Shown here: positions 26,697-40,584 of the stretch, piece by piece | How the letters are laid out: each line of letters starts with the position of its first letter | How positions within the stretch are numbered: the stretch's first letter is position 1 | Origin: an uncultured Anaerolineaceae bacterium | GTDB taxonomy: Bacteria > Chloroflexota > Limnocylindria > Limnocylindrales > CSP1-4 | Direction: 5' to 3' | Length of the DNA: 64,000 bases | Assembly: GCA_964475245.1 (NCBI GenBank) | Contig: CAYYVV010000002.1 | Location: 39,993-103,992, forward strand | The notes under the pieces: model-generated | Told to the model about the DNA's origin: nothing | Database searches by the model: none | The model's input: only the letters and a program-made list of their open reading frames with translations | Made by a program: the position numbers and the translations under genes

Positions 26697-27698
26697 TCAG
26701 TGCTCGAGCGGCTTGCCGCTCCGGACGACAGTGATCGCGTTCTCCAGCCTGAGCTTTTGGATCGTAAGGTACTTCGCAAGATTGGCGCGATCGATGTCGC
26801 CGATCTCACCGAGCACAGGCGACCCGAGAATCTCCGCCAGTTGCTCAACCGCCTCGGTCAGGATCTGCTTGGCCACCACCAGCGCGTTGTCGCCCGTCGG
26901 CAGCGAGCGCGGCAGGCGAGGGGCGGTGATTTCGGCGTCCGCCTCGACATCGGCGCCAGACGGATCGTCGGTCGCATGGGCGGCCGAAGCAGGTGCGACG
27001 CGGCCCTCTATCCTCTCGCGCAGCTTGACCAGGCTCAGACTTCCGTTGGCGACCTGCTCCGCCAGCCGGCGGCGCTTCTTAGGATCGTCGACCTTGAGCA
27101 GCTCATAGGCGTGGGACAAGGTGTCTTTGCGCAAAGACACGAGCTGCTTGATCTCCGTCGGGGCGCCGGCGAGTCGCAAGCGGTTCTCGATGTAGCCCTT
27201 GTCCTTGCCCAGCTTCTGGGCGAGCTTGCGCACGCTGTAGCCGTGGTCCTGCGTCATGCGCTCGTAGATCATCGCCTCCTCGAGCGGCGACAGGTCCTCG
27301 CGCTGCAGGTTTTCGATGATCCCGATTTCGAGCGCCGTCTCGTCGTCAAGCTGCTCGATCAGCGCCGGGATCTCCTTGAGTCCCGCGGCACGCGCCGCGC
27401 GCCAGCGCCGCTCGCCCGCGACAAGCTGGAAGCGGTGCAGCTCGGCGGTGGGTCGGACGAGGATCGGCTGGAGGACGCCATGCTCGCGAATCGACGCGGC
27501 GAGGTCGGCGAGTGGCTGTTCCTCGAAGTTCATGCGCGGTTGTTCGGGGTTGGGCGAGATTCGATCGAGCGGGATATTCCGGATACCCGTTGGAACATCG
27601 GTCGCATCGGGCGTGATCAGGCTCAGGATCGCCGGCGAGAGGTCGCGTTCCTCTGCTAGCCGGCGGGCGGCGGTGCTGCGGAAATCTGGTCTAGCCAA
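26697..27698 (-). CDS. parB: ParB/Spo0J chromosome partitioning protein
   Basis: ParB box GERRWRAARAAGLKEIPALI, IENLQREDLSPLEEA and an HTH region. I prefer TTG 27698, which gives an 8-nt overlap with the parA stop, over the track start at 27758. Confidence 0.9.
   Translation of the reverse strand: MARPDFRSTAARRLAEERDLSPAILSLITPDATDVPTGIRNIPLDRISPNPEQPRMNFEEQPLADLAASIREHGVLQPILVRPTAELHRFQLVAGERRWRAARAAGLKEIPALIEQLDDETALEIGIIENLQREDLSPLEEAMIYERMTQDHGYSVRKLAQKLGKDKGYIENRLRLAGAPTEIKQLVSLRKDTLSHAYELLKVDDPKKRRRLAEQVANGSLSLVKLRERIEGRVAPASAAHATDDPSGADVEADAEITAPRLPRSLPTGDNALVVAKQILTEAVEQLAEILGSPVLGEIGDIDRANLAKYLTIQKLRLENAITVVRSGKPLEH
27121..27140. repeat. 20-bp perfect palindrome GTGTCTTTGCGCAAAGACAC inside parB (copy 1 of 2)
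   Basis: The sequence is self-complementary as read directly. It shares an identical 19-mer, GTGTCTTTGCGCAAAGACA, with 30168..30186. Confidence 0.9.
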
Positions 27699-28461
27699 GC
27701 TCGATAACCTCCCGTGCCAGCCCGCGATATGCGCGCGCTGCCTCGGTATTGCTCGCATACGAAGTCACCGGTCTTCCGACCAGCGGGGCTTCGGCCAGCC
27801 GGACGGTCGGCCGGATCATGTTCTCGAAGATGTGATGGTCACTCAGGTCGCGCATCTCCTGGAGCATGTCGCGGCCCAGCACCGTGCGACCGTCGAAGAA
27901 GGTGGCCAGCAGACCGAGAACGCGCAGGCGCGGGTTGAGTCCCTTTGTTCGGATCTGGGTGATGACGTTCATCAGCGCCGTGAAGCCCTTGAGCGCGTAG
28001 TACTGGGTCTGGACCGGGATGATGACGCCGTCGGCGGCGACGAGCGCGTTGAGGGTCAGCAGGCCGAGGGTTGGCGGGCAATCAATCAGCACGTAGTCGT
28101 AGCGCGTCGCCGCGGGCGACTGGAGAACATCGCGCAGCGCCTGCTCACGGCCGATTGCGCTGAAGAGCACGTTCTCCGTTGCGGAGAGATCGATCGTCGA
28201 CGGCGCCACGTCGACACTGGGCGTCTGCGTTGGCACGATGATGTCGTCGAGCGTGACGCTCGAATCGACGAGCGCGTCGGCAATGGAGTGCTCGACGTTG
28301 CGCAGGTTGATGCCCAGGCCCACGGTCAGGTTGGCCTGCGGATCCATGTCAACGCACAGCACGCGATAGCCCTGCTCGGCCAGCGACCCAGCAAGATTGA
28401 TCGCCGTGGTCGTCTTGCCCACGCCACCTTTCTGGTTGGCGATGGCGATGATCCTTGCCAA
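27691..28461 (-). CDS. parA: ParA/Soj chromosome partitioning ATPase
   Basis: Deviant Walker A KGGVGKTTTAINLA, then VDMDPQANLT. I prefer TTG 28461, which has AGGAGG 6 nt upstream and gives 256 aa; the track start is 28494. Confidence 0.92.
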   Translation of the reverse strand: MARIIAIANQKGGVGKTTTAINLAGSLAEQGYRVLCVDMDPQANLTVGLGINLRNVEHSIADALVDSSVTLDDIIVPTQTPSVDVAPSTIDLSATENVLFSAIGREQALRDVLQSPAATRYDYVLIDCPPTLGLLTLNALVAADGVIIPVQTQYYALKGFTALMNVITQIRTKGLNPRLRVLGLLATFFDGRTVLGRDMLQEMRDLSDHHIFENMIRPTVRLAEAPLVGRPVTSYASNTEAARAYRGLAREVIELG

Positions 28462-28550
28462 TGGCCGCCTCCTCGAATAACCGTGAGCGACCACAAGCCC
28501 CCGGTCGCCGCTGCCAATCTAGCAAGAACGGGCGTCGAGCCACAGTCTGG

Positions 28551-28559
28551 TTATCCACA
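28551..28559 (+). promoter_or_regulatory. perfect DnaA-box 9-mer TTATCCACA in the parA / pccB divergent intergenic region
   Basis: Exact match to the consensus TTATCCACA. Degenerate boxes lie nearby: TTGTTCACC (28571..28579) and, on the other strand, CTGTCCACA (28585..28593). Confidence 0.45.
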
Positions 28560-28615
28560 GAAGGTCGAAGTTGTTCACCGATTCTGTGGACAGTCCTGAT
28601 TGCTACGATGGCGCC

Positions 28616-30166
28616 ATGGCCACCGAATCCGAGTTCGACCGTCTCGCCGAGCTGCGCGCCCAATCGATGTTGGGCGGTGGCGAGCAACGAATCGCGCAGC
28701 AGCATGAACGCGGCAAGCTCACCGCGCGCGAACGCCTCGAGCTGTTGCTGGATCCCGATTCGTTCGTCGAGTTCGACGCGTTCGTCACGCATCGCGCATC
28801 GGACTTCGGTCTCGAGCGCGAGCGCTACCTGGGCGATGGCGTCGTCACCGGCCACGGGACGATCGACGGTCGACTCGTGTTCGTGTTCAGCCAGGACTTC
28901 ACGGTCTTCGGCGGCTCGCTGTCCGAGGCGCACGCCGAAAAGATCTGCAAGATCATGGACCTCGCGGTTCGCGTCGGCGCGCCGATCGTCGGGCTCAACG
29001 ATTCGGGTGGTGCGCGCATCCAGGAGGGTGTCGTCTCACTCGGCGGCTATGCCGACATATTCCTGCGCAACACGCTGGCTTCCGGCGTCGTGCCCCAGAT
29101 CTCGCTCGTCCTTGGTCCGTGCGCAGGGGGCGCCGTCTACTCGCCGGCAATCACAGATTTCACGATCATGGTCGAGGGCACGAGCTACATGTTCGTCACC
29201 GGGCCGGACGTGGTGAAGACCGTGACTCACGAGGACGTTGATCGCGAGCGCCTGGGCGGCGCGTCGGTGCACACCACGATCAGCGGCGTCGCGCACCTTG
29301 CCGCGCACGACGAGGCCGAGGCCATGGCGCTGTGCCGTCGAGTACTCGCTCACCTGCCGCAGAACAACCTGAGCAAGCCGGCCCGACGGACATCCAATGA
29401 CCCGGCCGACCGGCGTGACGAGTCGCTCAATGAAGTTATCCCCGCGGAGCCAACGCAGCCGTACGACATGCACGAGGTCATCAGGCACGTTGTCGACGAC
29501 GGCGACTTCCTCGAGATCCAACCCGGCTGGGCAGCGAACATCATCGTCGGGTTTGCGCGCATGGGCGGCCAGAGCGTCGGCATCGTCGCTCACCAGCCGG
29601 CCGTGCTCGCCGGCGCGCTCGACATCGACGCGTCGGACAAGGCGGCGCGCTTCGTTCGAACCTGCGATGCGTTCAACGTCCCGTTGCTGACTTTCGTCGA
29701 CGTGCCGGGTTTCCTGCCCGGTGTCGGCCAGGAGCACGGCGGCATCATCCGCCACGGCGCGAAGCTGCTCTACGCGTACGCTGAGGCGACCGTGCCAAAG
29801 GTGACGGTCATTACGCGCAAGGCGTACGGCGGCGCCTACGACGTGATGAGCAGCAAGCACATCCGCGGCGACGTCAACCTCGCCTGGCCGACCGCGCGGA
29901 TCGCGGTCATGGGTGTGGAGGGTGCAGTCAACATCATCTTCCGCGACGAGCTGGCACACGCCGCTGATGTCGATGCCGAACGAGCGCGTCTGGCACACGA
30001 GTACGAGCAGCGGTTTGCGAACCCGTACATCGCTGCCAGCCGCGGCTATGTCGACGATGTCATCATGCCCTCTGAGACGCGGCCGCGGGTCATCGCCGCC
30101 CTGGAGATGCTCGAGGGCAAGCGTCAGACGAACCTGCCGCGCAAGCACGGCAACATTCCTCTCTGA
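28616..30166 (+). CDS. pccB: acyl-CoA (propionyl-CoA) carboxylase carboxyltransferase beta subunit
   Basis: 516 aa carboxyltransferase with [23 protein letters not shown] and [10 protein letters not shown]. The start was moved to ATG 28616 ([14 protein letters not shown]...). Confidence 0.92.
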
Positions 30167-30167
30167 A

Positions 30168-30187
30168 GTGTCTTTGCGCAAAGACAG
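30168..30187. repeat. second copy of the palindrome, at the pccB / biotin carboxylase junction
   Basis: GTGTCTTTGCGCAAAGACAG contains the perfect 18-bp palindrome TGTCTTTGCGCAAAGACA at 30169..30186. It begins 2 nt after the pccB stop. Confidence 0.9.
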
Positions 30188-31766
30188 CCCGCGAGAGGAC
30201 GTCTCGCGAGCTCTGTTCAGTCGAGTCCTGGTCGCCAACCGCGGCGAGATAGCGCTGCGCGTCATCCGCGCCTGCCGCGAGCTGGGCATCGAGTCGGTGG
30301 CGGTCTACTCCGATGCCGATGCCGGCGCGTTGCATGTCCGACTGGCGGACAGGGCCGTGCACATCGGGCCGGCGCCCGCGGTCGACAGCTACCTGCGCAT
30401 CGACCGGATCCTCGATGCCGCCGAGCGGATGGACTGCGACGCGCTCCACCCGGGTTACGGCTTCCTGTCCGAGCAGCCTGATATCGCCGAGGCGTGCGAG
30501 GCGGCCGGGATCACCTTCATCGGCCCGTCGCGCGAAGCCCTGGCCGAGCTGGGCGACAAGCTTGCGGCCCGCAAGCGCGCCGTCGATGCCGGCGTGCCGG
30601 TCGTGCCGGGCATCTTCTGGCCGATCGTCCTTTCGGGCGAGCGCGATGAGGCCGAGCTGCGCGAGCAGGCCGACAGGATTGGCTACCCGGTCCTGATCAA
30701 GGCCGCGGCAGGCGGCGGCGGCCGGGGCATGCGCCGCGTCAACGCGCGAGATGAGCTGATCGAGGCAGTCCATGGAGCCGCGCGCGAGGCCGCCGCCGCC
30801 TTCGGCGACGGATCCGTCTACCTCGAGCGCTACGTCGAAAGCGCGCGCCACGTCGAGGTCCAGCTGCTGGGCGACGGCGAAGGCCGGGTGATTGCCCTGG
30901 GCGAACGAGACTGCTCCATCCAGCGCCGCCATCAGAAGCTCGTCGAGGAGGCGCCGGCGCCCGGGCTCACGACCGAGCAGCGCCGCGAGCTGCATGAGCT
31001 CGGGGTCAGGGTCGTGCGCACGGTCGGGCTGCGCAACGCGGCGACCGCGGAGTTTCTGCTCACGCCTGGCGGTGAGTTCTGGTTCCTCGAGGTCAACGCC
31101 CGCCTGCAGGTCGAACACGGGGTCACGGAGCTGGTGAGCGAGCTCGACATCGTGCACGAACAGATCGCGATTGCCGCCGGGCGGCCGCTGTCGGCGCGCG
31201 CGCTGAGCGCCGCGGCGCGCGCCGCGGAACCCGTCCGGCACGCGATCGAGGTTCGCCTCTCTGCCGAGGATCCCGCCAATTCGTTCGCCCCCGGCCCGGG
31301 CCGGCTGACGCGCTGGCGGCCGCCGTCGGGTCCCGGCGTCAGGGTCGACTCAGGGGTAGAGGAGGGGAGCGACATCCCGGGCGACTACGACTCGATGTTC
31401 GCCAAGCTGATGGTCGTCGCTCCGGATCGGACCGCCGCGCTGAGCCGGATGCGCCGAGCCCTCGACGAGACCGAGATCGCCGGCGTCCAGTCGACACTGC
31501 CTTTCCACCGCTGGATCATTGAGCAGCCCGACTTCACGGACGAGAGCGGCGCCGGCCTGTCGACCGATCTGGTAGCACGGACGTGGGAGCCGGCGCCGTT
31601 GGTGGCCGCGGCCGCGCTGCGCGCGGCCGAGCTGACGGCCCTCGCGGCGCGGACGTCGGCGGCCCTGACGCCGTCCGAGCCGCGCGCCGGGCGAGCGACG
31701 CAACCGAAAGCCGACGACGCCTGGTGGCAGGCCGGCGTCCGCGAGCAGCTGGACGAGCGGCGGTGA
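30168..31766 (+). CDS. biotin carboxylase subunit of acetyl/propionyl-CoA carboxylase, with a ~80-aa C-terminal extension
   Basis: RVLVANRGEIALRVIRACRELGI, IKAAAGGGGRGMRRV and EVNARLQVEHGVTE. The track ORF (from 29913) was trimmed. The start is GTG 30168 or TTG 30174, just after the pccB stop. Confidence 0.9.
   Translation: MSLRKDSPREDVSRALFSRVLVANRGEIALRVIRACRELGIESVAVYSDADAGALHVRLADRAVHIGPAPAVDSYLRIDRILDAAERMDCDALHPGYGFLSEQPDIAEACEAAGITFIGPSREALAELGDKLAARKRAVDAGVPVVPGIFWPIVLSGERDEAELREQADRIGYPVLIKAAAGGGGRGMRRVNARDELIEAVHGAAREAAAAFGDGSVYLERYVESARHVEVQLLGDGEGRVIALGERDCSIQRRHQKLVEEAPAPGLTTEQRRELHELGVRVVRTVGLRNAATAEFLLTPGGEFWFLEVNARLQVEHGVTELVSELDIVHEQIAIAAGRPLSARALSAAARAAEPVRHAIEVRLSAEDPANSFAPGPGRLTRWRPPSGPGVRVDSGVEEGSDIPGDYDSMFAKLMVVAPDRTAALSRMRRALDETEIAGVQSTLPFHRWIIEQPDFTDESGAGLSTDLVARTWEPAPLVAAAALRAAELTALAARTSAALTPSEPRAGRATQPKADDAWWQAGVREQLDERR

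Positions 31767-39388: not shown

Positions 39389-40584
<1,196 letters not shown>

Follow-up and report, generated by a model that had tools for sequence, protein, structure and literature searches.

What reads a perfect 18-bp palindrome that stands twice in one locus, 3 kb apart, once inside a parB gene and once at the junction of two carboxylase genes? The question is raised by a 64,000-nucleotide stretch of DNA (hereafter the window; positions 39,993 to 103,992 of contig CAYYVV010000002.1, GenBank assembly GCA_964475245.1) from an uncultured Anaerolineaceae bacterium of the class Limnocylindria in the Chloroflexota. An earlier reading of the letters of the window (the original prediction) took the repeated element for a noncanonical parS, the site read by a ParB partition protein, or else for an operator of the neighboring acyl-CoA carboxylase genes. 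Comparison with related genomes leads us to favor, with a probability of about 0.75, a reading in which the palindrome is the predicted cognate parS-type loading site of ParB2, the ParB of a second, origin-distal partition system of this chromosome (here ParABS2).

The exact 19-nt recurrence with its perfect 18-bp palindromic core is present at both places where it was originally reported. The first copy lies in a minus-strand parB-like gene, where it is read as the codons V-S-L-R-K-D, and the second begins 2 nt past the stop codon of pccB. In dinucleotide-preserving shuffles 0.01 matches are expected at up to three mismatches, and the pair recurs, with its copies 3.0–3.2 kb apart, in all 36 genomes of the same family; the recurrence is thus beyond chance, as had been argued. 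Mapped over the whole assembly (2.72 Mb in 152 contigs, 67% GC, with the window on contig C2), the palindrome has exactly two copies, both at this parAB locus, and no others at up to two mismatches. Its likeness to canonical parS is limited to the TGT...ACA outline, and the best match to canonical parS in the window has three mismatches, so that on both counts the original description holds.

The search near parB in related genomes that the original prediction proposed finds the palindrome across the class Limnocylindria. Near-copies with at most two mismatches occur in 130 out of 151 class genomes, with two to five copies in each, and a reversed-pattern control matches in only four out of 151. 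In 29 genomes, among the matches listed, all sites are on the contig that carries the ParB2 helix signature, at most 8 kb from it. That signature (GKDKGYxENR) is single-copy in 146 of the 151 genomes, and parA2 adjoins parB2 in 36 out of 38 class loci. Over these 38 loci, the sites fall into four groups by position: inside parB (25), in the parA/pccB divergent region upstream of parA (27), and a short way behind pccB (25) or pccA (4). They share the invariant core GTC..TG.(G/A)CA..GAC and the consensus yGTCTTTGCGCAAAGACr. Sites are present in 31 out of 31 loci that have a ParB2 of the SHAY type together with an adjacent parA2, and in none of five loci with a ParB2 of the SAAY type.

The sites are held by selection at the nucleotide level. 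In a codon alignment of parB2 from 18 genomes, the codons GTG TCT TTG CGC AAA GAC hardly vary at all: the six palindrome codons have a mean codon entropy of 0.08, compared with 0.97 for 123 other codons of invariant residues. Three of the six (TCT, TTG, and AAA) are rare codons in this GC-rich genome; other lysines in the alignment are encoded by AAG in 15–17 of the 18 genomes, and neighboring synonymous sites are free to vary. The parB lineages that have no internal site use ordinary GC-rich codons here and encode variable residues, V-[SAGT]-x-R-x-D. It is therefore the site that constrains the protein and not the reverse. At the junction copy, which lies 0–30 nt from the pccB stop, the flanks are unconserved and the palindrome is nearly invariant.

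The original prediction had noted that both copies are readable as VSLRKD. This is explained by the position of the junction copy, which stands in the pccA frame and supplies the pccA start codon. It is in frame in 15 out of 16 genomes of this genus, with spacers of 23–59 nt that change in whole-codon steps, and the N-terminal stretch from the start codon to the conserved ...VANRGEIA motif (30168–30230 in the window) likewise varies by whole codons. Two start candidates derive from the palindrome, a GTG at position -1 (30168) and a TTG at position +5 (30174). In one genome (L050) these two are the sole ATG, GTG, or TTG starts, and another (L041) has in addition a CTG only; since some genomes thus offer no other start codon, the start of pccA must come from the palindrome. 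In other genera the junction site is out of frame, or is purely intergenic or without pccA behind it, and pccA has its own ATG further downstream.

The strongest computational support for a pairing of ParB2 with these sites is the independent association of its ParB subfamily with palindromes on plasmids. The exact GKDKGY helix signature occurs in none of 222 other Chloroflexota, and the variant GKDKSY is common in plasmid-type par loci of that phylum. The ParB of plasmid NZ_CP128402.1 of Candidatus (Ca.) Chlorohelix allophototropha is 43% identical to ParB2, and the palindrome GTCTGTATATACAGAC stands twice just after its parB gene and nowhere else in the complete 241-kb plasmid. Four further plasmid-type loci have two to three copies of GTCTGTAyrTACAGAC or GTATGTACGTACATAC at 10–90 bp after parB. 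Taken together, all five plasmid-type GKDKSY loci (L175–L179) carry two to three palindromes at 10–120 bp after the gene, in arrays of 16-bp palindromes, spaced 37–38 or 84 bp, that follow parB directly. The ParAs of these loci are long and bear a helix-turn-helix (HTH), and the surroundings are replication, phage, or insertion sequence contexts. We regard the plasmid palindromes as candidate parS sites, and the plasmid ParBs that go with these long, HTH-bearing ParAs as a subfamily that is apparently undescribed. The Limnocylindria site fits their GTCT-N8-AGAC frame, and ParB2 itself scores 167 bits against the plasmid ParBs and 135 bits against the other ParB of its own genome.

That other ParB belongs to a second parAB, located by tblastn on contig C11, whose products (ParA1 and ParB1) are 48% and 43% identical to ParA2 and ParB2. 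The single canonical parS of the genome, TGTTCCACGTGAAACA (C11:10852), lies about 140 bp upstream of parA1. The original prediction asked for canonical parS elsewhere in the genome, and its presence does not refute a parS reading of the palindrome, because a separate ParB1 exists to read it. The noncanonical parS reading as first given is well supported by comparison; what did not stand is its tacit premise that the parAB of the window is the only one, since the pair here is a second one, ParAB2. In single-contig genomes, ParB1 lies 28 kb (G002) and 103 kb (G028) from dnaA, and ParB2 lies 0.94 Mb (G002), 1.19 Mb (G028), and 0.80 Mb (G145) from it. Canonical parS, at up to one mismatch, is found in 38 out of 61 high-quality class genomes and is 20–55 kb from dnaA where this is measurable. 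In nine genomes drawn from two families, the distance between the ParB2 locus and dnaA is 0.32–0.42 genome lengths, so the clustering of copies around the origin that the original prediction had proposed to look for is not what we see. With ParAB1 and parS near dnaA on the same chromosome, ParABS2 is an additional, origin-distal system and not a replacement.

ParB2 is an intact protein of the ParB/Noc family. Pfam assigns ParB_N (2e-34) and HTH_ParB (2e-19) to ParB2, the latter at 70 bits compared with 122 bits for ParB1, and the best Protein Data Bank matches are Caulobacter ParB and Noc. The CTPase motifs (NPxQPR, GERRxRA, and ENLQRxDL) are present as NPEQPR, GERRWRA, and ENLQREDL and are invariant across the class. 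In work by Jalal and colleagues from 2020, four positions are said to switch specificity between ParB (R/T/A/G) and Noc (Q/K/K/R). In alignments with Caulobacter ParB and Noc, ParB1 reads R/T/D/G at these positions and ParB2 reads K/R/G/S, with all four changed. The recognition helix of ParB2 is GKDKGYIENRLRL, within the class signature; the protein also has HAY in place of HAR. An AlphaFold2 model is confident for the N-terminal and HTH domains (residues 57–250), with a predicted local distance difference test score of about 88 in the HTH; the linker is modeled as disordered and the C-terminal part as helical throughout. ParA2 (267 aa) has AAA_31/CbiA domains and no HTH; its identity is 48% with ParA1 and about 40% with the plasmid-type ParAs. 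The start of parB2 is an invariant TTG (27698) behind GGGAGGTGA, and the parA2 stop codon overlaps parB2 codons 2–3; this overlap implies translational coupling of the two genes.

Several observations weigh against the reading of the palindrome as a ParB2 loading site within a working partition system. ParB2 has no Pfam ParB_C dimerization domain, which ParB1 has. It also has no canonical motif for binding ParA, given as (L/F/I)G(K/R)G(L/F/I) (PMC12704722): Its N terminus, M-ARPDFRSTAARRL, is Arg-rich (M-ARPDFR), and it is ParB1 that carries the motif, as GLGRGLAALI. Because both features are missing, clamp formation by ParB2 and its coupling to ParA2 are assumptions. The sites are far from the origin, unlike nearly all chromosomal parS. 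Moreover, the position of the origin is itself placed by dnaA, canonical parS, and gyrBA only, because the GC skew of a closed relative (G002; 2.43-Mb chromosome, 40 samples of 20 kb, L133–L172) is essentially flat, with no origin or terminus switch, and a search of the genome under study for an origin of replication (oriC) found no cluster of DnaA boxes near dnaA (contig C33). Next, ParA2 scores higher against ParA1 (219 bits) than against the plasmid ParAs (about 160 bits), so a simple origin by plasmid integration is not clean; we nevertheless think it plausible from these comparisons that ParABS2 is a domesticated plasmid or second-replicon module. Finally, no recognizable site accompanies ParB2 in the clade with the SAAY type or in most Limnocylindrus genomes, and in Limnocylindrus there is no adjacent parA2.

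The lineages without the site differ among themselves. The SAAY clade comprises five loci (L078, L079, L080, L084, and L085) in which ParB2 reads ...RYDTLSAAYELMK, with SAAY for SHAY, and the parA2-parB2 pair is kept; two of them (L084 and L085) retain one half-site, GTCTTTGC, upstream of parA2. The two Ca. Limnocylindrus loci (L087 and L088) come from streamlined freshwater genomes of 1.0–1.4 Mb in which the ParB2 ortholog has 44% identity; in Limnocylindrus canonical parS is kept about 20 kb from dnaA, and most genomes are without the palindrome. When the SAAY-clade loci and the Limnocylindrus loci were searched de novo for another palindrome, no shared motif emerged. In two further relatives, L040 (G028) and L046 (G003), parB2 is frameshifted. 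Since G028 is a single-contig assembly with an estimated completeness of 65%, these frameshifts are more likely long-read indel errors than marks of pseudogenes.

How might the system work? ParB2 dimers would recognize the palindrome and, with CTP bound, close to form sliding clamps that spread across a few kilobases around parAB2. ParA2, activated by the Arg-rich N terminus of ParB2 (M-ARPDFR...), would then act to position or segregate this origin-distal locus, without depending on the system at the origin. A trio of DnaA boxes in the parA2/pccB divergent region may tie expression to the replication cycle. Its arrangement, TTATCCACA-N11-TTGTTCACC-N5-TGTGGAyA, is kept in 21 out of 21 family loci, one of which has no pccB, and in 30 out of 36 class loci a DnaA box (at most one mismatch; 28 are exact TGTGGATAA) is found about 30–370 nt upstream of the start of the parA2 alignment. 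Perfect TTATCCACA boxes number five in the whole genome. This conservation suggests that the trio is a DnaA-dependent control element of parAB2, or possibly the relic of a replicon origin. ParABS2 itself probably descends from a partition module of a plasmid or second replicon that became a fixed part of the chromosome in the ancestor of the class. A bolder form of the proposal is that two orthogonal centromeres, both functional, are kept on a single chromosome throughout the class, the universal ParABS1 close to the origin and a plasmid-derived ParABS2 about three-quarters of the way to the terminus, the latter actively positioning the origin-distal part of the chromosome, timed by DnaA boxes, as a partition module that survived an ancient replicon fusion. 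We put this forward tentatively and would sooner doubt it than assert it. The chance that the locus marks a second origin that is still active is at most very small.

The sites could also serve transcription. ParB2 may bind the palindromes in the manner of KorB, as a local regulator of parA2-parB2 and pccB-pccA and not as a centromere protein. In most genera sites lie in the divergent parA2/pccB promoter region, and others are at the pccB/pccA and post-pccA junctions, one of them covering the pccA start codon in this genus; KorB is a detectable distant relative of ParB2 (E about 1e-15); and ParB2 is without the canonical ParA-binding motif and, in Limnocylindrus, without an adjacent parA2. However, translation of parA2 is coupled to that of parB2 and the gene is conserved throughout the class, the sites are unchanged in genomes without pccB, the internal parB2 site is kept at a cost in codon usage, as is typical of centromeres, and no KorA-like partner is seen. 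Autoregulation and centromere function can moreover coexist, and we judge regulation by ParB2 instead of partition to be unlikely, if worth keeping in mind. Much less credible is the operator of the original prediction, bound by a separate dimeric factor of the propionyl-CoA carboxylase/methylmalonyl-CoA operon. The sites do flank pccB and pccA, and the inner TTTGCGCAAA is similar to TTTGCAAA, the half-sites at which PccR of Rhodobacter has its operator. The sites remain with parAB, however, where pccBA is not adjacent (L033, from genome G035, and L073 and L075), and no pccB homolog was found at E ≤ 1e-50 in these three genomes (G035, G204, and G205), which keep sites at parAB2; the sites therefore follow parAB2 and not pcc. 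A regulator of the ScfR/PccR type (PF09856) was found in none of four genomes, and control genomes gave matches. The neighbors of the locus are a UbiA prenyltransferase and a methylmalonyl-CoA mutase with no conserved regulator gene, a second acyl-CoA carboxylase beta gene of the same genome (on contig C7) has no site, and the copy inside parB2 is maintained across the family. On the persistence of the sites without pccB and the want of a PccR-type regulator we reject this operator.

Two further readings concern the shape of the element. A perfect palindrome of this kind can fold into a stem of 7 bp, and in this genus such a hairpin would sequester the pccA start codon, so that an RNA terminator, attenuator, or translational control of pccA, or a DNA cruciform, might be imagined. 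The RNA fold energy is nonetheless ordinary (z = 0.17), with no U-tract and no terminator; the copies lie on either strand relative to transcription, some of them in promoter regions that are probably untranscribed; and among 40 distinct site variants the inner changes are 48 one-sided and two compensatory, as in a site for a dimeric protein where weakness of one half-site is tolerated. With pairing broken by variation in this way, we reject the hairpin and terminator as well, and give the whole group of structural readings hardly any credence. Smaller still is the chance that the copies are recombination sites (for inversion, excision, or dif-like resolution) bracketing a 3-kb cassette. Two identical, inverted-symmetric sites 3 kb apart, in a locus far from the origin, would invite this, but the same gene order and orientation are found between the sites in 21 family and 38 class loci, with no inverted or excised forms seen. 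Each locus besides has two to five copies and no adjacent recombinase gene, no asymmetric spacer stands at the center of the 18-bp perfect palindrome, and a search of the genome for a XerCD dif-like consensus found none. The reading of the palindrome as a site for ParB2 is thus the one we carry forward, and the features on which it bears are collected in Table 1.

Table 1. Features of the candidate ParABS2 locus in the window, and of the second parAB of the same genome
Feature	Position	Strand	Remarks
19-mer GTGTCTTTGCGCAAAGACA	27121-27139 and 30168-30186		two identical copies
parS2 copy a (candidate), TGTCTTTGCGCAAAGACA	27122..27139		perfect 18-bp palindrome in parB2; codons V-S-L-R-K-D-T, DNA-binding domain
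parS2 copy b (candidate), same palindrome	30169..30186		pccB/pccA junction; carries the pccA start in this genus
parB2, ParB/Spo0J-family, CTPase-type	26697..27698	-	333 aa; Pfam ParB_N + HTH_ParB
parA2, short Soj-type ParA ATPase	27691..28494	-	deviant Walker A KGGVGKTT; exact start uncertain
DnaA-box trio, parA2/pccB divergent region	28551..28593		TTATCCACA 28551-28559; TTGTTCACC 28571-28579; TGTGGACAG 28585-28593
pccB, propionyl-CoA carboxylase carboxyltransferase subunit	28616..30166	+	passenger between the sites; Pfam Carboxyl_trans
pccA/accC-type biotin carboxylase	30168..31766	+	start inside parS2 copy b; Pfam Biotin_carb_N, CPSase_L_D2, Biotin_carb_C
parA1-parB1	C11:9055-10867		same genome, outside the window; then gyrB, an unknown open reading frame, gyrA

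Two other places in the genome came to light during these searches. The sole three-box cluster in the assembly (C10:30546–30617) consists of degenerate DnaA boxes at a spacing of about 31 nt, just upstream of a gene like rsmG/gidB, and is a possible oriC candidate. A third open reading frame of about 387 aa (C15:50629–50883) has a weak match to ParB_N only (53 bits) and is probably a ParB-like nuclease or an orphan ParB.

ParB and parS form a near-universal bacterial centromere whose sites are almost always at the origin. Compared with canonical ParABS (parS TGTTNCACGTGAAACA; Bacillus subtilis, Caulobacter, and Thermus), ParABS2 likewise joins in one operon a ParA of the Soj type and a ParB that has both the CTPase motifs of ParB_N and a ParB HTH; its palindromes, again of 16–18 bp, are few and grouped at the operon, and one lies within parB, as in spo0J of B. 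subtilis. It differs in a site that shares only the TGT...ACA outline, in the four changed specificity residues, in a ParB without the LG(R/K)GL motif and Pfam ParB_C, in lying far from the origin, and in sharing its chromosome with a canonical ParABS1. The plasmid-type systems of Chloroflexota, represented by Ca. Chlorohelix allophototropha NZ_CP128402.1 and metagenomic Chloroflexia/Roseiflexaceae loci, share the helix GKDK(G/S)Y(I/V)xxR, the GTCT...AGAC arms, and sites unique to the par locus. Their inner bases are GTATATAC-like against TTGCGCAA here, their sites stand in tandem directly after parB, and their ParAs are long with an N-terminal HTH, whereas ParABS2 is embedded in conserved core-metabolic synteny on closed main chromosomes.

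Orthogonal partition systems in one cell are familiar from Vibrio cholerae, whose ParABS1 and ParABS2 include those of strains with naturally fused chromosomes, and from Burkholderia cenocepacia with its replicon-specific parS. Such multipartite or fused genomes resemble the present case in their two ParB paralogs and non-cross-reacting sites, which after fusion are on one DNA molecule. In contrast, ParABS2 of Limnocylindria is fixed and syntenic across the class, keeps an origin-distal position, and has no second replication initiator at its locus. Noc with its binding sites (NBS) and KorB with its operators (OB) are likewise ParB-fold CTPases re-specified by few HTH residues, and KorB acts at promoter palindromes. 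Noc has no ParA, however, and its sites are dispersed over the chromosome, whereas ParABS2 has two to five sites at one locus and a coupled ParA2; KorB sites are spread over the plasmid and act with KorA, whereas those of ParABS2 are local only. We found no prior description of the palindrome, or of a Chloroflexi parS, in the searchable literature.

If the palindrome is indeed the site of ParB2, the class Limnocylindria would hold a natural, class-wide orthogonal ParB/parS pair on one chromosome. This would be a test case for rewired ParB specificity, because all four known specificity positions differ and the gene carries the site in the part that encodes its DNA-binding domain. The pair may also offer a ready-made orthogonal ParB/parS tool for labeling DNA loci. 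It would also raise the question of what role a second centromere plays on a single chromosome. Limnocylindria, which abound in soils and lakes, are uncultured, and their genome biology is otherwise inaccessible.

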